From Candidatus Rariloculaceae bacterium (GTDB lineage Bacteria; Pseudomonadota; Gammaproteobacteria; Steroidobacterales; Rariloculaceae): a stretch of 64,000 nt of DNA. The notes under the pieces were generated by a model. It made no database searches, had not been told where the DNA came from, and saw only the letters and a program-made list of their open reading frames with translations. The stretch is from positions 246,518-310,517 of the forward strand of contig JBJKYL010000017.1 of the NCBI GenBank assembly GCA_045561055.1, read 5' to 3'. The stretch's first letter is position 1, and every line of letters begins with the position of its first letter. The translations under genes and the position numbers were made by a program. Shown here piece by piece: positions 6,364-24,007 of the stretch.

Positions 6364-6439
6364 TGGCTCCCCGGGCCGGACTCGAACCAGCGACAAGTTG
6401 ATTAACAGTCAACCGCTCTACCAACTGAGCTACCGGGGA
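6364..6439 (-). tRNA. tRNA-Asn(GTT)
   Basis: TCCCCGG..CCGGGGAGCCA acceptor, anticodon arm GTTGA-CTGTTAA-TCAAC, GGTTCGAGTCC T-loop. Confidence 0.97.
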
Positions 6440-9957: not shown

Positions 9958-10032
9958 AGGCGCGTAGCTCAGTGGTAGAGCACCACCTTGACATGGTGGG
10001 GGTCGGTGGTTCGATCCCACTCGCGCCTACCA
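9958..10032 (+). tRNA. tRNA-Val(GAC)
   Basis: AGGCGCG/CGCGCCT-ACCA, anticodon arm CCACC-TTGACAT-GGTGG. Confidence 0.97.
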
Positions 10033-15782: not shown

Positions 15783-15859
<77 letters not shown>

Positions 15860-15930: not shown

Positions 15931-16338
15931 ATGATGCAACTACGAATTGTCTTTTCGAGTTTTCTTCAACTGGTTGTAGTTATGCTAGGGGGAATTACTA
16001 CCCTCACGGCTACGGCTGAGACAATTGCAATAATCGGCACAGGAGAAGTCGCAGGCGCCCTCGGACCGGAGTTTGCGGCTATCGGTCACGAAATCGTCTA
16101 CGGGTCGCGTAACCCAGACAGAGAGGGTGTCAACGAACTTGTTGGCAAAACAGGTGTAATGGCGTCGGCTACCGGTCAACGCGAAGCCGCGCAGCGTGGA
16201 CAGATAGTTATTCTCGCCGTGCCCTGGAATGTCGTGGGAACGACCTTAAATACCCTTGGTGACCTTTCTGGCAAGATAGTACTAGACCCAACTAATTTCT
16301 TTTGTCGTACTGATTTCAGGACCGTTGCATTTGAGTAA
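15931..16338 (+). pseudogene. Truncated NADPH-dependent F420 reductase-like oxidoreductase (N-terminal half)
   Basis: IAIIGTGEVAGALG Rossmann motif, GSR, ILAVPW, GKIVLDPTN, then similarity ends abruptly and the ORF runs into ilvD. Confidence 0.7.
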
Positions 16339-18016
16339 AAGTAACAAAGTTGATCCTCGTCAACACTCTCGCATCGTTGTAGACGGGCTAGCGCAGGCGC
16401 CAAGCCGGGCGATGCTGCGGGCAGTAGGTTTTACCGAGGAGGATTTCTCTAAACCCCAGGTTGGTATTGCGTCAATGGGTAGTATGGTTACGCCATGTAA
16501 CATGCACCTGGACGGACTGGCGAAGATTACAGCTGAAAGCGCAGATGCGATGGGCGGTAAAAGTATTGTTTTCAATACGATTACTGTTTCCGACGGAATT
16601 TCTATGGGTACCGCGGGGATGCGATATTCTTTAGTTTCGCGGGAGGTTATCGCGGACTCTATTGAAGCTGTGGTGGAAGCTGAAGGCTTCGATGGGGTTG
16701 TTGCTATTGGTGGTTGCGATAAGAATATGCCTGGTTGCGTAATGGCAATGGCGCGTCTCGACCGGCCGTCGGTTTTTGTTTATGGCGGAACTATTCAGCC
16801 GGGACCGAAACAACGGGACATCGTGTCTGTTTTCGAAGCTGTCGGCGGTGTAGCCACAGGAAATGTTAGCGAAGCCGAGCTAAAAGAAGTTGAGTCTACA
16901 GCGATTCCGGGACCGGGTTCTTGTGCTGGAATGTATACGGCAAACACTATGGCATCAGCAATCGAAGCCATGGGTCTCAGTTTGGGTAATAGCTCGGCTC
17001 AGGAGGCTGTTTCGGATGCCAAGCAACGTGATTGTATGCAAGCTGGTAAAGCGGTTATGGAGCTGATTCGGCGTGGCATCAAGCCATCAGATATCCTTTC
17101 GAAGGAAGCTTTTGAGAATGCGATTACAGTTACTATTGCACTTGGCGGTTCCACTAACGCTGTACTTCATTTGTTGGCAATGGCCAACGATGCGCAAGTT
17201 GAGCTTACGTTAGAAGATTTTACGCGAATTGGAGCATACGTCCCTGTCGTTGGAGATCTTCGTCCGAGTGGGCGCTACCTAATGTCTGAGCTTATTAAGA
17301 TTGGGGGCATACAGCCTCTGATGAAAACGTTGCTCGAAGCAGGACTATTGCATGGAGACTGTCTTACTGTTACGGGAAATACCCTAAAACAAAATTTAGC
17401 CGATGTGAGGAGCTATCCTGATGGTCAGGATATTATTCGGCCGCTCGCCAACCCTATAAAAACTGATAGTCACCTAGCGGTGCTTTATGGAAATCTAGCG
17501 CCGGAAGGCGCGATTGCAAAAATATCAGGTAAAGAAGGTACGCGATTTACCGGAACAGCGCGCGTTTTCCACTCGGAGGAGAGTTCTCTAAAAGCTATTT
17601 TGAGCGGAGCCATTGTTGTCGGTGATGTTATCGTAATTCGTTACGAAGGTCCCAAAGGCGGGCCGGGTATGCGTGAGATGTTAAGTCCTACGGGAGCTAT
17701 TATCGGTCGTGGTCTCGGTGATAAAGTCGCGCTTATCACAGATGGACGTTTCTCTGGGGGAAGCCATGGTTTCGTTGTTGGTCACGTTACTCCGGAAGCC
17801 GCTGTGGGCGGTCCGATCGGGCTCTTAAAGAACGGCGATACGATCACTATCGATAGTGAAACAAAACGTATCGATGTTCATTTGTCGGAAGATGAACTTG
17901 ATGCCCGGATGAATGTTTGGGAACCACCGGAGGCAAAAGCTACACGAGGGCTGCTTGCGAAGTATGCTCGCCTCGTCAGTTCAGCATCTTTAGGCGCAAT
18001 TACTGATCGTCTCTGA
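16325..18016 (+). CDS. ilvD: Dihydroxy-acid dehydratase
   Basis: PCNMHL, SDGISMG, GCDKNMPG, CAGMYTANTM, GGSTN, GPKGGPGMREM, TDGRFSG. Confidence 0.96.
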   Translation: MHLSKSNKVDPRQHSRIVVDGLAQAPSRAMLRAVGFTEEDFSKPQVGIASMGSMVTPCNMHLDGLAKITAESADAMGGKSIVFNTITVSDGISMGTAGMRYSLVSREVIADSIEAVVEAEGFDGVVAIGGCDKNMPGCVMAMARLDRPSVFVYGGTIQPGPKQRDIVSVFEAVGGVATGNVSEAELKEVESTAIPGPGSCAGMYTANTMASAIEAMGLSLGNSSAQEAVSDAKQRDCMQAGKAVMELIRRGIKPSDILSKEAFENAITVTIALGGSTNAVLHLLAMANDAQVELTLEDFTRIGAYVPVVGDLRPSGRYLMSELIKIGGIQPLMKTLLEAGLLHGDCLTVTGNTLKQNLADVRSYPDGQDIIRPLANPIKTDSHLAVLYGNLAPEGAIAKISGKEGTRFTGTARVFHSEESSLKAILSGAIVVGDVIVIRYEGPKGGPGMREMLSPTGAIIGRGLGDKVALITDGRFSGGSHGFVVGHVTPEAAVGGPIGLLKNGDTITIDSETKRIDVHLSEDELDARMNVWEPPEAKATRGLLAKYARLVSSASLGAITDRL

Positions 18017-18026
18017 TCTTCCCGTC

Positions 18027-18055
18027 TTGACGTGGAAGCAAGTAGGCTTTAACTT
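18027..18055 (+). promoter_or_regulatory. Sigma70-like promoter for the lysC-lysA leader
   Basis: TTGACG (18027-18032), 17-bp spacer, TAACTT (18050-18055). Confidence 0.6.
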
Positions 18056-18062
18056 GCAAGGC

Positions 18063-18146
18063 ATGGATTGCATAGATAAAAAGCATGAAAGCTTTCTGAT
18101 TGTCACGCGAAAGCAGACAAAAAGCGGGGTAGTGTCCATGCATTAG
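18063..18146 (+). CDS. Putative Lys-containing leader peptide MDCIDKKHESFLIVTRKQTKSGVVSMH
   Basis: 27-aa ORF overlapping alternative hairpins upstream of a terminator; tandem AAA-AAG at codons 6-7. Confidence 0.65.
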   Translation: MDCIDKKHESFLIVTRKQTKSGVVSMH

Positions 18147-18174
18147 TGTTCTAATGCTATGGTCACTAGAAAAG

Positions 18175-18207
18175 CCCGCTGAGGAAACTCATAGCGGGTT
18201 TTTTTTT
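18175..18207 (+). terminator. Intrinsic terminator (attenuator) upstream of lysC-lysA
   Basis: CCCGCTGAG-GAAA-CTC(AT)AGCGGG followed by T9, ending 17 nt before the ATG. Confidence 0.88.
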
Positions 18208-18224
18208 GAAGGAGCTATATTTAG

Positions 18225-20864
18225 ATGAATCACGAAGTTCATGCCTCCCTTGGGAATCGCGACGTAGAGTTTGCGTTCCCAGAATCACCGTTTGTTGTGA
18301 TGAAGTTTGGTGGGCGCAGCGTAGCTACGGCTCGTAACTGGACAACCATTGCGAATCTTGTTCAGGAGCGACTTGCCGAAGGTTTGGTCCCTATTGTGGT
18401 TCACTCGGCGCTAGCCGGTGTTTCGAATACGCTTGAAGCGTTGCTTCAGAACGCTATGGTTTGCGATACGGATAAAGTAATAGCGGATATTAAACAGCGT
18501 CATGTCTTACTTGCTGATGAGTTAGGAGTTAACTCAAATCTTTTAGACTCAGAATTTCAAAACTTACAAAAACTGATAGATGGATTGCGGTTAGTTGGGG
18601 AAATCAATCTGCCTGTTTACGCGCGAGTAATGGCCACTGGAGAGCTTGCAGCGACAACGCTGGGATGCGGATATCTCGAGAGCATTGGATTGCGGGCTTC
18701 CTGGCGTGACGCTCGTCAGATACTTCACAGCAATAACGAACAGGAGCAAAACGAACGGACCCGCTTCTTAGCGGCAAGCTGTGATTTCGCTCCGCAGGTT
18801 GAACTCCAATCGGAACTGCTACACAGCGAAGAGTTTATCGTGACACAAGGTTTTATCGCAGGGAATACTGCTGGTGACACGGTCTTGTTGGGCCGCGGCG
18901 GGTCGGATACTTCTGCCGCGTATTTAGCTGCGTGTTTACAAGCACAGCGGCTCGAAATCTGGACCGATGTGCCGGGATTTTTTAGTACGGATCCAAAGAT
19001 TGTACGTTCGGCACGTTTACTAAGGTCTTTGCACTATCGTGAGGCTCAAGAGATCGCTTCTGCAGGTGGTGCTATTTTACATCCTCGCAGTATTGCTCCA
19101 GTACGACAATTAGGCATTCCTTTGTTTTTAAGATGGACGAGCCACCCAGATTGTGAAGGCACTTTAATCTCCATTAAGGAAGAGGATGATAAGGCCCAAC
19201 TGAAAGCTATATCTCAACGTAGTGGATTGACTTTAGTTTCCATGGAATCAATAGAGATGTGGCATCAGGTCGGATTTCTTGCCGATGTGTTTGAGATTTT
19301 TCGTTCCCACGGATTCTCTGTTGATTTGATTTCGACATCGGAAAGTAACGTTACAGTCTCTATCGATTTGCAAGCTAACGTTACCGATCAACAGGCGATC
19401 AATGCGTTGGTTCAGGACCTCGGTGGTCTATGCCGGGCGACTATCATAGAGGATTGTGCTGCAGTGACGCTAGTCGGAAATAGGATTCGTGCAATCTTGC
19501 ACGAATTAAGTTCGGTCATGGAGGTGTTTGAAGAACAAAAGGTTCATCTAGTAACACAAGCCGCTAATGACCTTAATTTTACGTTCGTTGTCGACTCGGA
19601 ACATGCTCATCGTTTAGTAAAACGGATTCATGGACTACTTGTTAACCGTTTTCAAGAAGGCGGTGTCTTCGGACCAACGTGGGAAGAGTTATCGGGGTCA
19701 GGATCAGGATTGATAGGGGATCGTTCCGACCATCCGGTGCCATGGTGGGAAACTAAAAAAGATGAACTCGTTAAAATAGCCGAAGAACATGAATCCGCCT
19801 ACGTTTACGATATAGAGACTACTCGAGGAGCGCTAGCGAGATTGAACGAATTGAGTGCAGTTGATTCGGTCTACTATGCGATGAAGGCAAACGCGCACCC
19901 CGATATTTTAAGAGTTGTCTACGAGCAAAACGTGAATTTCGAATGCGTATCTCCCGGTGAGATAGAGCGCGTGCTTGAAGTGATACCCAACATCGATCGT
20001 AAGCGGATCCTATTCACGCCGAATTTTGCTTCTAGAAAAGAATATGAATGGGCATTCGAGCAAGACATCTGGGTGACGCTTGATAATTTATATCCGTTGA
20101 AAAATTGGGCTACCGTTTTCTCAGGTCGGGAAATTTTTATCCGAATTGATACTGGACAAGGGCGTGGCCACCATGAGCATGTTCGAACAGCGGGTGCGCA
20201 CTCTAAGTTTGGAGTTCCTCTATTCGAGCTCGATGAGCTACGCGATTTAATCAATCTAGCAGACGCTACGGTTGTCGGCCTGCATGCCCATACGGGTAGT
20301 GGGGTATTGACACCTGATAATTGGCGCCAGACAGGTGAGCAGTTAAATGGACTGCGTGCCTTTTTTCCAAACGTTCGTTATATGGATCTTGGCGGTGGAA
20401 TTGGGATTCCAGAACGTTTAGGGCAGAAGCCAATGGACATGGCGAGCCTCGATGAATCTCTTCGAGGGCTAAAGAAGATGAGCGGATCCGTAGAGCTTTG
20501 GCTGGAACCCGGTCGTTTTGTCGTGGGGCCTGCCGGGGTTCTTGTTACGCGAGTAACTCAGCTTAAAGGGAAAGACGGCGAGTATTACGTTGGTGTGAGC
20601 ACTGGCATGAATTCCCTCATTCGACCAGCGCTTTATGGTGCGTACCACGAAATTTTTAATTTGTCGCGGCTTGATGCACCGGTAGATAAGCTTATGACGA
20701 TCGTGGGGCCAGTGTGTGAAACCGGAGATAGGCTGGGGTCAGATAGGTTGTTGCCGGTGACGGAGGAGGGCGATGTTATGCTCATCGCCAATGCGGGCGC
20801 TTATGGTTACGCGATGAGCTCCCGCTACAACCTTCGCGAGCCAGCTGTCGAGGTAGTGCTCTAG
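18225..20864 (+). CDS. Bifunctional aspartate kinase / diaminopimelate decarboxylase
   Basis: KFGGRSV, LGRGGSDTSA, WTDVPG, two ACT domains; then YAMKAN, SKFG, HAHTGSG, EPGRF, GPVCETGD, GAYG. Confidence 0.95.
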   Translation: MNHEVHASLGNRDVEFAFPESPFVVMKFGGRSVATARNWTTIANLVQERLAEGLVPIVVHSALAGVSNTLEALLQNAMVCDTDKVIADIKQRHVLLADELGVNSNLLDSEFQNLQKLIDGLRLVGEINLPVYARVMATGELAATTLGCGYLESIGLRASWRDARQILHSNNEQEQNERTRFLAASCDFAPQVELQSELLHSEEFIVTQGFIAGNTAGDTVLLGRGGSDTSAAYLAACLQAQRLEIWTDVPGFFSTDPKIVRSARLLRSLHYREAQEIASAGGAILHPRSIAPVRQLGIPLFLRWTSHPDCEGTLISIKEEDDKAQLKAISQRSGLTLVSMESIEMWHQVGFLADVFEIFRSHGFSVDLISTSESNVTVSIDLQANVTDQQAINALVQDLGGLCRATIIEDCAAVTLVGNRIRAILHELSSVMEVFEEQKVHLVTQAANDLNFTFVVDSEHAHRLVKRIHGLLVNRFQEGGVFGPTWEELSGSGSGLIGDRSDHPVPWWETKKDELVKIAEEHESAYVYDIETTRGALARLNELSAVDSVYYAMKANAHPDILRVVYEQNVNFECVSPGEIERVLEVIPNIDRKRILFTPNFASRKEYEWAFEQDIWVTLDNLYPLKNWATVFSGREIFIRIDTGQGRGHHEHVRTAGAHSKFGVPLFELDELRDLINLADATVVGLHAHTGSGVLTPDNWRQTGEQLNGLRAFFPNVRYMDLGGGIGIPERLGQKPMDMASLDESLRGLKKMSGSVELWLEPGRFVVGPAGVLVTRVTQLKGKDGEYYVGVSTGMNSLIRPALYGAYHEIFNLSRLDAPVDKLMTIVGPVCETGDRLGSDRLLPVTEEGDVMLIANAGAYGYAMSSRYNLREPAVEVVL

Positions 20865-20938: not shown

Positions 20939-22006
20939 TTAAGATGTCAACTGGGTAAGGACGGCGTCGCCAAATTCACTCGTGCTGACAGCGTTCCGAT
21001 TAGTCGTAGCTACTAAATCAGTAGTAAGAATTCCTGCAGCTAGTACTGCTTTAACCGCGTCTTCAACGGCATTTGCGGCTTCGGAAGCATCCATCGAGTG
21101 ACGAAGTAAAAGTGCCATACTAAGGATAGCGCCGCATGGGTTAGCAATACCTTTTCCTGCTATATCGGGAGCGGACCCGTGGATCGGTTCAAAAAGACCG
21201 GCGCTAGTTTGATTTAACGAAGCCGATGGCAGTACACCAAGAGATCCAGCTAGCATTGATGCCTCGTCTGTCAGAATATCTCCGAACATATTGTCCATTA
21301 CCATGACATCGAATTCGGCAGGACGGCTCAATAGGTGCATCGTGGCAGCATCTATATAGAGATGCTCGAGTTCTATATCAGGATATTCTTCGCTGAATAT
21401 CCGAGTTGCGGTCTCGCGCCAAAGCCGCGATGTATCTAGTACGTTGGCCTTGTCAACCGAGGTTACCCTCCGTTTTCGGGTCCGAGCTAAACTTCCTGCT
21501 ACTCGACAAATTCTCTCAATCTCTTCAATGCTATATTCACAAGTATCAAAAGCTGTGGTCTTAGTCCTACCTCGTTTCCCAAAGTAGATACCACCGGTCA
21601 ATTCCCGAACAATGATAATGTCAACATTGGCCAACCGTTCTGGTTTTATTGGTGAGGTTGCGACAAACTCCGGCACGGTCTTGACCGGCCGTAGGTTCGC
21701 GAATAAACCTAACTCGCGACGCAAATCGAGTAGGCCTTGCTCTGGGCGGAGCTCTGTTGCGATGTTTTCCCACTGAGGTCCGCCGACTGCACCAAGAAAA
21801 ATTGCTCTTGCATTTCGGCAAAGGTCTAATGTTTCTATGGGAAGTGGGGTTCCTACCAGATCGATTGCGGCACCGCCTATCAGAGCATGCTTGATAGTCA
21901 AACCGAGATTATATTTTTTTGCTATTACTTCTAGTACACGCACTGCTTGTACTGTTACGTCGGGGCCTATGCCGTCGCCCGGAAGGATAACGATGGACGA
22001 GGTCAT
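20939..22006 (-). CDS. leuB: 3-isopropylmalate dehydrogenase
   Basis: LPGDGIGP, RELTGGIYFG, NMFGDILTDEA, EPIHGSAPDIAG. Confidence 0.96.
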   Translation of the reverse strand: MTSSIVILPGDGIGPDVTVQAVRVLEVIAKKYNLGLTIKHALIGGAAIDLVGTPLPIETLDLCRNARAIFLGAVGGPQWENIATELRPEQGLLDLRRELGLFANLRPVKTVPEFVATSPIKPERLANVDIIIVRELTGGIYFGKRGRTKTTAFDTCEYSIEEIERICRVAGSLARTRKRRVTSVDKANVLDTSRLWRETATRIFSEEYPDIELEHLYIDAATMHLLSRPAEFDVMVMDNMFGDILTDEASMLAGSLGVLPSASLNQTSAGLFEPIHGSAPDIAGKGIANPCGAILSMALLLRHSMDASEAANAVEDAVKAVLAAGILTTDLVATTNRNAVSTSEFGDAVLTQLTS

Positions 22007-22578
22007 TAACGTTTTTCTTCAAATTTGTCTATCGTATCGGCGTGCTGGCGGAGATAACCGAGTTGATCTATTCCGTTCAAAAGACAGTAACGCGCAAATC
22101 GGTCAATGTTGAATGAAATTGGCTCGTGGCCGGGAATTATCAGTTTAAGCGTATCGATATCAACGGTGATATCCGCACCAGGGTTTTCCAGAAGCCAGCA
22201 ATGAGTCTCATTATTCACTATTACAGGTATCAATCCATTTTTTAGAGAGTTGTGAAAAAAAATATCGGCAATCTCTGTGCTAATAATCACCTGAAAACCG
22301 TAATCCAGCAAGGCCCATGGTGCATGTTCACGAGAGGAGCCACATCCGAAGTTTCGCCCAGCAACTAGGATTGCTGCGCCCTCAGCTTGAGTTTGATTGA
22401 GCACGAATTCGTCAACCGTATTGCCGTTCGCGTCGTAACGCCAGTCGGTAAATAGGTGATCTCCGAGTCCTTCTTTTACGGTTGTCGTTAAAAATCGGGC
22501 AGGAATAATTTGGTCGGTATCTATATCATCTAAAGGCAAGACGACCGTCTGGGAGTCAATTCGTGTTACTACTTTCAT
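22006..22578 (-). CDS. leuD: 3-isopropylmalate dehydratase small subunit
   Basis: DTDQIIPARFL, NFGCGSSREHAPWAL. Confidence 0.96.
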   Translation of the reverse strand: MKVVTRIDSQTVVLPLDDIDTDQIIPARFLTTTVKEGLGDHLFTDWRYDANGNTVDEFVLNQTQAEGAAILVAGRNFGCGSSREHAPWALLDYGFQVIISTEIADIFFHNSLKNGLIPVIVNNETHCWLLENPGADITVDIDTLKLIIPGHEPISFNIDRFARYCLLNGIDQLGYLRQHADTIDKFEEKR

Positions 22579-22585
22579 TGCATCA

Positions 22586-24007
22586 TTAATCCAAATATTG
22601 CCTAGGATCGCTTACCGTCCCGCTAAGTGCGGACGCTGCGGCCGTGAGCGGGCTTGCGAGAATGGTTCTAGCTCCAGCGCCTTGGCGCCCCTCGAAGTTG
22701 CGGTTACTAGTACTCACGGCAAGCTTTCCCGCTGGAACGAAGTCGCCATTCATCGCCAAACACATTGAGCAACCCGGTTCACGCCACTCTGCACCCGCAC
22801 CCTTAAAGATCTCGTCAAGACCAGCTGTTTCTGCGGCTTCTTTTATCTGTTGAGATCCTGGTACAACAAGCATACGGACATCATTCGCGATTTTACGGCC
22901 GTTGAGCATATTAGCCGCGACTTCTAGATCACTGAGGCGCGAGTTTGTACAACTGCCGAGAAACACCACATCGACTGGTATTCCCGATAATGGTTTGCCG
23001 GATTCGACCTGCATATATTCGAGAGCTTTTGCAAAGGCCTTGTCATTCCCTTTCGGAGCGGGGACTGGGTCATCAATAGAGACAACCATGCCTGGATTGG
23101 TCCCAAATGTAACCATGGGTGCCATTTTCGACACATCCAGCGTGAGCTGTTTGTCGAATAATGCGTCGGGATCTCCAGGTAGATTTTTCCATTCTAAAAG
23201 GGCACGATCCCAATCAGCACCAACAGGCGCATAAGGTCGGCCAGCTAGATATTCGAAGGTTGTTTCGTCTGGCGCAATCATTCCGGCTCTTGCCCCTCCT
23301 TCAATAGCCATATTGCAGATCGTCATTCGTTCTTCCATCGACAATGCAGAAATAGTAGACCCTGAATATTCGACGGCGTGGCCTGTGCCCCCATCCACTC
23401 CCGTCTCGCCAATAATGCTGAGAACAATGTCCTTCGCTGCCACGCCGATAGGGAGATTGCCCTCCAGGTTAATTGCAAATGTCTTAGGGCGTCTTTGTAA
23501 CATGCACTGTGTTGCTAGAACGTGACCAACCTCGGTCGTACCGATACCGAATGCCAATGCACCAAATGCTCCGTGTGTACTTGTATGAGAGTCACCACAC
23601 ACGATAGTTCTCCCAGGTTGTGTCGCACCGAGCTCGGGACCGATTACATGTACGATACCGCGCTCTGGGCTGGAGAATCCCCGAAGCTTAATATCAAACT
23701 CCTCACAGTTTTTTTCCATCTGAATTAGTTGCCGGGTCGCCGGCGTGTCGTTTACAACCGCAAGCTCTGCTAGAGAACTTACTGGCGTCGTCGGCGTTGA
23801 ATGATCCATCGTAGCAAGCGTTTGGTTTGGGCGTCTGACACGCAATCCGTTTTCGCGGAGAAGGTTAAATGCCTGGGGTGACGTCACTTCATGGACGAGA
23901 TGTAGGTCAATATAAAGTATCGCGGGCGTATCCTGGGTTTCGGGTACTACTACATGTGATTCCCATACTTTTTCAAATAATGACTTCATTTTTTGCCTCA
24001 TATTCAA
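22586..24007 (-). CDS. leuC: 3-isopropylmalate dehydratase large subunit
   Basis: [51 protein letters not shown]. Confidence 0.97.

Follow-up and report, generated by a model that had tools for sequence, protein, structure and literature searches.

A probable leader-peptide attenuator with a putatively leaderless reading frame upstream of lysC-lysA in a lineage of Gammaproteobacteria

We find that the lysC-lysA fusion gene of a Candidatus Rariloculaceae bacterium is probably controlled by transcription attenuation of the trp/his/thr type, in which ribosomes that translate a leader peptide operate the switch. The candidate leader occupies positions 18027-18224 of the window (the whole stretch of 64,000 nucleotides analysed here, from contig JBJKYL010000017.1 of assembly GCA_045561055.1), and on our best reading it would sense lysine, and in relatives also threonine and methionine, where we infer both the stalling of ribosomes and the response to any amino acid. 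More broadly, and with confidence only somewhat better than even, we propose that in an order of marine and sediment Gammaproteobacteria, most of them uncultured, the committed lysine enzyme is controlled by ribosome stalling rather than by the L-box. Two structurally unrelated leaderless attenuators would have arisen upstream of this one gene, the first a multivalent sensor of Lys, Thr and Met with 27-28 codons and the second a Lys sensor with 39 codons.

Textbook accounts describe the control of lysine biosynthesis by a riboswitch (the L-box) or by protein regulators, while attenuators with leader peptides are well documented for Trp, His, Phe, Leu, Thr and Ile/Val; a full-text search of the literature found no description of leader-peptide attenuation for Lys. 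If our proposal is true, the two leaders would be the first attenuators of this kind for lysine, and would show that attenuator designs have converged in nature. Confirmation would fill the lysine gap in leader-peptide attenuation, place leaderless leader peptides outside the Actinomycetota and Deinococcota, and provide two independent designs at the same gene that can be directly compared, as well as a compact (about 145 nt) genetic switch that responds to Lys, and in relatives to Lys/Thr/Met.

Genomic setting and predicted start of the leader

The leader is flanked on its 5' side by ilvD (dihydroxy-acid dehydratase; 16325-18016, forward strand; Pfam ILVD_EDD_N 3.4e-124, ILV_EDD_C 1.2e-75), which ends 10 nt ahead of the -35 hexamer with no terminator in the intervening window sequence. 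On its 3' side lies the gene that we propose to be regulated, lysC-lysA (18225-20864, forward strand), whose 879 aa product joins an aspartate kinase (AK) and an ACT domain to a diaminopimelate-type PLP decarboxylase (Pfam AA_kinase 1.2e-36, ACT_9, Orn_Arg_deC_N 4.3e-34, Orn_DAP_Arg_deC 1.8e-22). The Shine-Dalgarno sequence of this gene, GAAGGAG (18208-18214, forward strand), the GGAGC of which is kept in the alignment of relatives, follows directly on the U run of an intrinsic terminator, and since this run ends 18 nt ahead of the lysC-lysA start, the gene can be transcribed only through the terminator.

A predicted promoter precedes the leader ORF on the forward strand, as was read by the initial annotation, and consists of the -35 hexamer TTGACG (18027-18032), a 17-nt spacer, the -10 hexamer TAACTT (18050-18055) and a further 7 nt before the ATG at 18063-18065. 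This layout is conserved in relatives: TTGAC is invariant in 13/13 of those aligned, the -10 hexamer appears as TAAGTT or TATGTT, the spacing TTGAC-17-TAnnTT-7-ATG is maintained, and the distance from TTGAC to the leader ATG is 35-37 nt in 14/14, with the ATG itself invariant in the 13/13 leaders found via the protein. The 7-nt discriminator that follows the -10 hexamer is GC-rich in relatives, where GCGCGCC is kept. A simple consensus scan for promoters and terminators across 17500-18700 returned 0 sites, because TAACTT agrees with TATAAT at only 3/6 positions and the terminator stem is bulged, which places both features outside the rules of the scan; the case for the promoter consequently rests on conservation in relatives and not on the scan. 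No purine-rich Shine-Dalgarno sequence stands ahead of the leader ATG, given that the promoter fills the upstream space. Transcription would start on the A of ATG 18063 or on a neighbouring base, and the ORF of 27 codons is probably translated from this leaderless 5' end. Among 20 rows of public sequencing runs that overlap the stretch, two are RNA, and mapping of these together with two DNA runs yielded RNA contigs at 18220-18486 (depth 2) and 17800-17939 (depth 3.2), both outside the leader, which speak neither for nor against its transcription, its start site or its termination.

Across the lysC-lysA loci of relatives, ilvD is found upstream in 29/30 cases and a leader in 14/30 (13 of the 27/28-codon class and one of the 39-codon class). 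In the other 16 loci lysC-lysA abuts ilvD with a gap of 8-73 nt, implying that the two genes can work as a plain operon. This arrangement, along with the lack of a terminator belonging to ilvD itself, lends some weight to an alternative that we consider unlikely, namely that the hairpin is a plain ilvD terminator, that the small ORF does not sense amino acids, and that lysC-lysA is expressed via constitutive partial read-through, general coupling of translation to transcription, or ppGpp, the last of which could draw on the conserved GCGCGCC discriminator. However, such an explanation does not account for the second copy of AGCGGG upstream, the fixed length of the ORF or the position of its stop codon, nor for the fact, described below, that Lys, Met and Thr in particular are enriched. 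It also leaves unexplained the independent 39-codon design, at whose loci no ilvD-like C-terminus occurs in the 700 nt upstream.

Distribution and coding signature of the leader ORF

From the leaders of 13 relatives we built a covariance model (R1), which with a second model (R2) defines two new RNA families; these may be used to annotate genomes that are publicly available almost exclusively as MAGs. R1 has exactly one strong match in the genome under study (118 bits), and among 85 genomes of the family it finds full-length matches in 27 (76-151 bits), at one copy per genome, while beyond the family a further 5 matches (57-108 bits) come from three other families of the order. Thirty of these 32 strong matches have an ORF with the N-terminus of lysC-lysA immediately downstream, at a distance of 0-76 nt, and at the remaining two the ORF finder chose an overlapping frame. 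The 27/28-codon (class I) leader is exclusively associated with lysC-lysA. The sole class-level match outside the order (36 bits) is a false positive, corresponding to the 3' end of an L33-like gene and its terminator. A strict scan of the own genome for TTGAC-17/19-TAnnnT-6/8-ATG followed by a short ORF and a terminator gave, besides the lysC-lysA leader, one unconvincing candidate, and inspection upstream of the second aspartate kinase of this genome (a thrA-like long ORF) showed neither leader nor terminator.

The leader ORF of the window (18063-18146, forward strand) comprises 27 codons and a TAG stop at 18144-18146, and encodes the peptide MDCIDKKHESFLIVTRKQTKSGVVSMH. In agreement with the initial annotation, which counted 12 aspartate-family residues and four Lys, 12 of its 27 residues are D, I, K, T or M, and Lys stands at codons 6, 7, 17 and 20, the first two of which are the adjacent AAA AAG (18078-18083, forward strand). 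That annotation called for conservation in related genomes, and relatives do indeed keep the upstream ORF together with its length, predicted leaderless position and Lys codons. Its choice of Lys6-Lys7 as the key codons needs correction: among 28-codon leaders Lys is present at codon 6 in 10/24 and at codon 7 in 14/24, but the best-conserved Lys is Lys17 (22/24), a conservation which, like that of Met13 and Met15, is confounded with structure, because all three codons sit inside a hairpin (hairpin A, below). Ser21 is found in 20/24 of the same leaders and Gly22 in 24/24. More generally, conservation of the peptide is good in its C-terminal half, whereas the first 12 codons are barely conserved in sequence. 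Of 33 distinct class I leaders, a set chosen by a pattern that demands an ORF of 20-45 codons (an earlier list of R1 matches was unfiltered for ORF length, yet R1 was itself built from ORF-bearing leaders), 31 have an ORF of 27-28 codons, and the other two frames reach a first stop after a median of 3 and 15 codons.

A strong compositional bias is apparent over codons 2-19 of these 33 leaders (594 codons), in which K is observed 84 times against 14.4 expected (5.8x), M 63 times against 12.2 (5.2x) and T 82 times against 30.3 (2.7x). No other residue is as enriched as Lys, Met and Thr, all three of which are end products of the aspartate-kinase pathway, while Ile is hardly enriched (1.28x). Together they fill 229 of the 594 codons (38.6%) in frame 0, compared to 48 and 44 (about 8%) in the other frames, and compared to 91.3 +/- 7.5 (maximum 119) in 1000 dinucleotide shuffles (z = 18); binomial P values for this bias overstate its significance, since the leader sequences are related. 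The window leader itself stands at the low end of the range, with only 5 K+M+T in 18 codons. Lysine was the signal put forward by the initial annotation, and this is borne out insofar as each of the 33 leaders has at least one Lys, the only one of the three residues present in every leader, but Lys is not the signal alone, considering the strong enrichment of Met and Thr. One genus carries leaders with Thr/Met-rich runs, for example MATTTKRMTTTMMATGKR, and Thr runs such as MTTTMM occur. The idea that Thr/Met-rich leaders mark genomes without a second kinase was ruled out, as both genomes checked from the genus with such leaders (G019 and G031) possess one.

A product acting in trans offers another potential explanation, whereby the 27-aa peptide or the terminated RNA of ~145 nt would function as a small protein or sRNA, beside or instead of attenuation in cis. 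The products of the Sinorhizobium trp attenuator, peTrpL and rnTrpL, are described as a precedent for this, and the well-conserved C-terminal half of the peptide would suit it. Nevertheless, we regard it as very unlikely, given that the leader occurs as one copy per genome, always adjoining lysC-lysA, and that the N-terminal half of the peptide is kept in composition only.

Alternative RNA folds and a model for the proposed switch

Under the attenuation that we favour, the leader RNA (all features on the forward strand) would be partitioned into four segments and two additional hairpins. Segment 1, GCUUU (18091-18095), forms the 5' strand of a protector (anti-antiterminator) and pairs in the minimum free energy (MFE) fold with AAAGC at 18121-18125. 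Between these strands is hairpin A (18100-18120), in which UUGUC at 18100-18104 pairs with GACAA at 18116-18120 beneath a GC-GAAA-GC cap, with Lys17 (18111-18113) in the loop. Segment 2, AGCGGG (18123-18128), coincides with codons Ser21-Gly22 and can pair with segment 1 or segment 3, and it is followed by hairpin B (18130-18168), the body of the antiterminator, which carries the leader stop codon in its 5' arm near the apex. Segment 3, CCCGCU (18175-18180), is common to the antiterminator and the intrinsic terminator (18169-18207), which consists of a stem at 18169-18204, including segment 4 (AGCGGG, 18193-18198), and a run of nine U at 18199-18207, and folds at -19.3 kcal/mol. The helix between AGCGGG 18123-18128 and CCCGCU 18175-18180 closes hairpin B, and this region folds at -29.1 kcal/mol. 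Folding thus reproduces the helices of the three alternative pairings that had been proposed from inspection of the sequence, and the MFE of the 198-nt region (-63.7 kcal/mol) lies well below that of 200 shuffles (-47.4 +/- 3.8; z = -4.3), none of which was as good.

Comparison among relatives points in the same direction for several of these elements. Covariation, another check suggested at the outset, is seen in hairpin A, where compensatory changes affect 5/5 pairs in 34 aligned rows. Segments 2, 3 and 4 give no covariation because they are nearly invariant: in 13 aligned rows the GGG of segment 2 is invariant and its AGC nearly so (at least 90%), and the CCCGC of segment 3 is invariant in 13/13. 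The AGCGGG/CCCGCU helix closes the fold from segment 2 to segment 3 in 27/27 sequences folded, and 33-34 of the 34 rows form the alignment pairs 145-149 with 165-169. Over the 15 pairs of the terminator, 94.6% of cells are paired (34 rows), and for the whole structure the figure is 92.8%, against 46.7-61.4% when the structure is slid along the alignment. The two consensus pairs of the protector vary on one side only in the 34-row alignment, and the stability of hairpin B is not clearly above that of shuffles in most relatives (median z = -1.25, below -2 in 5/25). The spacing of these elements relative to the ORF is also constrained, with 60 nt from the ATG to segment 2 in 23/25 leaders and 21-24 nt from segment 2 to the stop codon in 25/25 (exactly 24 nt in 22/25), while the distance from segment 2 to segment 3 varies between 52 and 57 nt without regard to threes.

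In the mechanism that we propose, three folds would compete: the protector (1:2) around hairpin A, the antiterminator (2:3) around hairpin B, and the terminator (3:4) with its nine U. When Lys-tRNA is scarce, a ribosome would stall once its A site reaches Lys6, Lys7 or Lys17, at which point it would cover, or have melted, segment 1 and hairpin A while leaving segment 2 free, so that the antiterminator could form once segment 3 emerges and RNA polymerase would read into lysC-lysA; in relatives, scarcity of Thr-tRNA and Met-tRNA probably acts likewise. When charged tRNA is plentiful, the ribosome would continue across segment 2 and enter the hairpin B 5' arm, which carries the stop codon, thereby blocking the antiterminator and allowing the terminator to stop transcription 18 nt before lysC-lysA.

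We modelled this process with a ribosome that masks 27 nt. In 6/6 leaders modelled, the antiterminator is allowed for A-site codons up to 16-17 and abolished at A-site codons 18-26 or 18-27. The enriched codons fall within the permissive stretch of this model, with Lys17 the last or next-to-last permissive codon in 4/6 leaders and just past it in 2/6. When the ribosome sits at the stop codon, this model continues to permit a 6-bp helix between segments 2 and 3 in some leaders, and blocking at this position therefore relies on steric bulk, which the model leaves out. In an equilibrium model of the full-length RNA the terminator wins over the antiterminator (P(T) = 1.0), and because it is the more stable of the two, control must be kinetic. 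An equilibrium model of the nascent RNA has the antiterminator of the window forming without a ribosome (P = 0.99; 0.00-0.05 in two relatives, where the protector is effective), which leaves the basal termination of untranslated window transcripts unexplained. The initial annotation had envisaged a switch operated by opening of the protector, and while the 1:2 pairing is reproduced, it is weak in the window, where it comprises 5 mostly A-U pairs and occupies half of segment 2 (3 of its 6 nt). In the window, the models suggest that the decisive event is more likely to be the arrival of the ribosome at segment 2 and the 5' arm of hairpin B than the opening of the protector.

Known RNA families, comparable systems and a second leader class

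The initial annotation had advised a search for known riboswitches, and none was found: at gathering thresholds no Rfam family matches the leader in the window or in 7 representative relatives. In E-value mode the window gave only sub-threshold matches over the terminator part, to RF00506 Thr_leader (18.4 bits against a gathering score of 55), RF00513 Trp_leader (13.2 against 41) and RF00514 His_leader (14.1 against 49). Similarly, a search for the L-box (RF00168) across the whole own genome (2.36 Mb, 98% complete) gave no match at E <= 1, with E. coli and B. subtilis controls positive. These searches bear on a further alternative, in which a structured leader RNA senses a metabolite, protein or tRNA instead of ribosome position, and the ORF is incidental to structure. 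The conserved GNRA-like cap and covariation of hairpin A would fit such a sensor, as would the fact that C-terminal peptide conservation (S-G, V-P-M) largely coincides with segment 2 and hairpin B, and that in the 39-codon class, too, the peptide is conserved mostly at helices. We nonetheless judge it quite unlikely: codons 2-12 are poorly conserved yet always open, fixed in length and rich in K/M/T in frame 0 only, the distance between ATG and promoter is fixed, and no riboswitch, T-box or leader family of Rfam reaches threshold.

The proposed attenuator shares several features with characterised systems. Its predicted four-segment geometry (1:2, 2:3, 3:4) is that of the trp and his attenuators, and it likewise has a stop codon placed such that a terminating ribosome would prevent 2:3 pairing, as well as a terminator that at equilibrium is the more stable fold. 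It differs from them in that the regulatory codons of the window leader are dispersed and not in a tight run, and in that segments 1-2 enclose a separate covarying hairpin and segments 2-3 a long hairpin bearing the stop codon. The E. coli thr leader (thrL) also combines a peptide in which aspartate-pathway end products are abundant with a terminator before an aspartate-kinase fusion gene, although AK is fused there to homoserine dehydrogenase and here to DAP decarboxylase, and here the ORF is leaderless. Compared to thr attenuators, Lys codons are universal in the lysC-lysA leaders and Ile is hardly enriched. Multivalent sensing of the kind that we suggest has a parallel in the thrA attenuators of Pasteurellales, which were reportedly predicted by Vitreschak et al. 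in 2004 to sense Thr, Ile and Met. The L-box (LYS element) performs the same regulatory task, through lysine-dependent premature termination upstream of lysC (PMC2659441, PMC1262725), with the RNA itself as the sensor, whereas in our proposal this role would fall to the translating ribosome.

Leaderless leader peptides have been described in Deinococcus deserti, where 14 are predicted, with transcription starting on or one base before the AUG of short amino-acid-rich ORFs that precede biosynthesis or tRNA-synthetase genes, and for which attenuation was proposed (PMC4007540). None of these is known to be a lysine leader peptide, and a Lys-rich one may be among the 14. Actinobacteria also possess leaderless leader peptides (Corynebacterium, and the poly-Cys uORFs of mycobacteria). 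These examples belong to Deinococcota and Actinomycetota, while the lysC-lysA leader is from Gammaproteobacteria.

One family, for which the matching public contigs are titled Woeseiaceae, carries a second class of putatively leaderless leader before lysC-lysA, of 39 codons and represented by 22 distinct sequences. This leader is structurally different from that of the 27/28-codon class. Lys20 is present in 21/22 and Lys23 in 16/22 of its sequences, both within the unpaired stretch that separates the strands of a 10-bp helix. Public contigs with leaders are titled Ca. Rariloculaceae, Ca. Azotimanducaceae, Woeseiaceae and Steroidobacteraceae.

A candidate attenuator ahead of lysC-lysA

In the window, 208 nt separate ilvD (16325-18016, plus strand) from the gene for an 879-aa aspartate kinase-ACT-diaminopimelate decarboxylase fusion, lysC-lysA (18225-20864, plus strand; both from Pfam). 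The leader (18027-18224) reads as the initial annotation described it, with TTGACG at 18027, a 17-nt spacer, TAACTT at 18050, seven nucleotides and an ATG at 18063 that opens a 27-codon ORF (MDCIDKKHESFLIVTRKQTKSGVVSMH) ending at TAG 18144, all on the plus strand, followed by a hairpin with nine U (18169-18207, plus strand). Only 18 nt lie between the end of this U-tailed hairpin and the lysC-lysA start codon, and the GAAGGAG of lysC-lysA follows directly on the U run; lysC-lysA can consequently only be transcribed through the terminator. A simple consensus scan listed neither promoter nor terminator, as the -10 element matches TATAAT poorly and the stem is bulged, so that the case for the promoter rests on its conservation. 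Against shuffled sequence the fold of the leader region scores z = -4.3, and folding predicts the same helices as had been proposed: a protector (segment 1, GCUUU 18091-18095, with segment 2, AGCGGG 18123-18128), hairpin A (18100-18120), an antiterminator (segment 2 with segment 3, CCCGCU 18175-18180) with hairpin B (18130-18168) as its body, and the terminator (segment 3 with segment 4, AGCGGG 18193-18198).

The leader observation is real and far beyond chance. Its best-supported reading, which we consider probable while inferring all of its functional steps, is a leaderless, ribosome-mediated attenuator of lysC-lysA, in which the position of the ribosome on the ORF would set the choice between antiterminator and terminator.

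At gathering thresholds, Rfam returned only three tRNAs from the 64-kb window (6367-6439, minus strand; 9958-10029 and 15783-15856, plus strand; 61-69 bits) and no match at the leader, nor did any family match the loci of seven representative relatives. In E-value mode the leader drew sub-threshold, terminator-driven scores (Thr_leader 18.4 bits of 55, His_leader 14.1 of 49, Trp_leader 13.2 of 41). The lysine riboswitch model matched control genomes and found no match in the whole genome that holds the window (98% complete). The earlier statement that no well-characterised leader-peptide attenuator for lysine was known to its author agrees with full-text searches, whose scope took in few subscription journals and in which we found no description of one. 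Two papers give the usual view, in which the L-box regulates lysine whereas attenuators serve His, Thr and Phe (PMC2659441, PMC1262725). Leaderless leader peptides are described for Deinococcus deserti (PMC4007540), and also for Corynebacterium and mycobacteria.

A second aspartate kinase of the same genome, outside the window, in an 875-aa ORF that is probably a thrA-type aspartate kinase-homoserine dehydrogenase, lies about 130 nt after an rpe-like gene (upstream region G000:C9:122900-123040, G000 being this genome), and those 130 nt hold no recognisable leader ORF or terminator. Convergent with lysC-lysA, on the minus strand of window 20939-24007, are leuB (Iso_dh, 1.1e-135), leuD (Aconitase_C) and a probable leuC (473-aa ORF); together with ilvD and lysC-lysA they form a cluster of branched-chain and aspartate-family genes. 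The runs containing window DNA come from marine metagenomes. Over 17942-18388, leader included, contigs of two other marine metagenomes (X3, X5) do not differ from the window; eight differences are listed for the adjoining coding sequence of ilvD and lysC-lysA (17830-17941, 18389-18474), numbers too few for a test.

Distribution and coding signature in relatives

The LysC-LysA protein was matched in 59 of 61 related genomes, a tally that takes in one genome flagged unpublished (G051), which bears on none of the claims made here, and the fusion is found on public MAG contigs titled Gammaproteobacteria, Ca. Rariloculaceae/Rariloculus, Ca. Azotimanducaceae, Woeseiaceae and Steroidobacteraceae. 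Among 30 lysC-lysA loci of relatives, 14 have a leader; in the other 16 (L009-L014, L016-L019, L022, L023, L025-L028) ilvD and lysC-lysA are only 8-73 nt apart, with no leader, promoter or terminator, while gaps holding a 27/28-codon (class I) leader measure 196-577 nt. The attenuator thus amounts to a module of roughly 200 nt that some genomes have between these two genes and others lack, even inside one family.

TTGAC and the ATG are invariant across the 13 class I leaders located by way of the protein, and the -10 element is TAAGTT, TATGTT or similar. From ATG to U run their RNA measures 146-152 nt. The 7-nt discriminator between -10 element and ATG is GC-rich (GCGCGCC in most relatives, alignment A1, columns 30-36; GCAAGGC in the window, 18056-18062). 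GC-rich discriminators are typical of ppGpp/DksA-repressed promoters, and a promoter of this type would be unexpected in front of a gene for amino-acid synthesis.

R1, a covariance model of these 13 leaders, gave one strong match in the window's own genome, 27 full-length matches in 85 genomes of the family (76-151 bits, four genera only) and five more elsewhere in the order, in three other families. Nothing real was found in 150 genomes of other gammaproteobacterial families; the only match there, at 36 bits, was rejected because it covers the 3' part of an L33-like gene together with that gene's terminator. Of the 32 strong matches, 30 were placed 0-76 nt ahead of an ORF that has the lysC-lysA N-terminus, the ORF finder having given an overlapping frame for the remaining two. 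A contig titled Ca. Azotimanducaceae (L107, 996-1145) has a class I-like leader (MAMIDKDVTTVMTTNSKRAVRRLIVSMI, 51 bits) whose segments 2-4 and U run look degenerate, and which may be a decaying or remodelled attenuator.

The ORF is conserved in relatives, as the initial annotation anticipated: 31 of 33 distinct class I leaders, picked by a pattern demanding a 20-45-codon ORF, have 27-28 codons (28 in 24, 27 in seven, with single leaders of 26 and 23), and the R1-based match list, free of a length filter though R1 itself was built from ORF-bearing leaders, gives the same lengths. In the other two frames the median run before a stop is 3 and 15 codons. Spacing within the ORF is fixed, with ATG and segment 2 60 nt apart in 23/25 leaders and segment 2 and the stop 24 nt apart in 22/25, and the non-coding spacing of segments 2 and 3 varies over 52-57 nt; one leader has segment 2 in another frame with the stop position unchanged.

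Codons 2-12 are hardly conserved in sequence but conserved in composition (e.g. MDCIDKKHESF, MSYIGKKQTAG, MATTTKRMTTT, MNRTGLKQTTS, MLSIARKLTTS). Relative to long ORFs of the same loci, codons 2-19 are enriched 5.8-fold in Lys, 5.2-fold in Met and 2.7-fold in Thr, with every other residue at 1.5-fold or less. Lys, Met and Thr are three end products of the pathway opened by aspartate kinase. Combined, they account for 38.6% of these codons, whereas the other frames give 8.1% and 7.4% and dinucleotide-preserving shuffles 15.4% (z = 18, 0/1000 as high); the leaders are related, so P values overstate significance, and the pattern recurs in each genus with differing sequences. One genus has runs like those of the thr leader (MATTTKRMTTTMMATGKRAVSGLAVPMV). 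The proposal that Lys6-Lys7 senses lysine needs amending: Lys occurs in all 33 leaders and neither Met nor Thr does, but Met and Thr are enriched too, and Lys17, the most conserved Lys (22/24 leaders), is at least as important. The class I family would accordingly be read as sensing Lys together with Thr and Met.

RNA structure and ribosome position

The expected covariation is seen in hairpin A, which carries Lys17 in its loop and has compensatory changes at 5/5 pairs (34 model-aligned rows; e.g. CG 13, GC 10, UA 3). Over the whole structure 92.8% of cells are paired, against 46.7-61.4% with slid partners (34 rows, in an alignment fitted to the model). Segments 2, 3 and 4 are almost invariant and hence show no covariation; segment 2, the upstream AGCGGG copy, has no part in the terminator alone, and it is as fixed at third codon positions as at first and second ones. 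The 2:3 helix closes the intervening stretch in 27/27 folded sequences (-18 to -29 kcal/mol), whose terminators reach -18 to -25 kcal/mol. The stability of hairpin B did not clearly exceed that of shuffles. The protector is less certain: segment 2 has 3-5 nt paired with nt 29-35 (codons 10-12) in many relatives, and paired elsewhere or not at all in others.

We modelled six leaders by masking a 27-nt footprint at each A-site codon and computing pairing in the RNA before segment 4 is made. In all six, an A-site position up to codon 16-17 still permits the antiterminator, and one at codons 18-26 or 18-27 abolishes it; the K/T/M-rich part falls within the permissive stretch, and Lys17 is its last or next-to-last codon in four leaders and just beyond it in two. 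With the ribosome on the stop codon a bare 6-bp 2:3 helix is still permitted in some leaders, in a model that ignores steric exclusion. At equilibrium the full-length RNA always prefers the terminator, as in the trp attenuator, and the choice of fold must therefore be kinetic. The protector, whose opening by a stalled ribosome had been proposed as the switch, is predicted as a helix, but nascent window RNA forms the antiterminator without a ribosome (P = 0.99; 0.00-0.05 in two relatives), so that in these computations the protector may be of minor importance in the window's own genome.

A second leader class

A further 22 distinct leaders (class II; L071, L119, L121, L128-L166 and others; alignment A5) were drawn from genomes of family f10 and from public contigs whose titles read Woeseiaceae, Woeseia, Chromatiales or Gammaproteobacteria. 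The ORF has 39 codons in 22/22 (e.g. MIFTATHVKCQLIDSIDMEKHLKYMARQRRVGANGNCTG), lies downstream of a TTGAC-N-ATG arrangement and upstream of lysC-lysA, and is predicted to be leaderless. The class II model, R2, gave one match per genome in 12/14 genomes of one family and none in the other 137 genomes sampled in the order. The class II RNA differs from that of class I and is highly structured: RNAalifold predicts 44 pairs, 11 with compensatory changes. Among them are a 10-bp helix joining codons 5-8 to codons 30-33, two inner helices, a hairpin whose loop holds the stop codon, and the terminator; the 3' strand of the 10-bp helix, GCGUGGG, could alternatively pair with CCCGC of the terminator. 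Lys20 (21/22) and Lys23 (16/22) lie in the sole long stretch predicted to be single-stranded, which the two strands of the 10-bp helix flank. Class II shows no enrichment of Thr, which supports lysine as the putative common signal of both classes.
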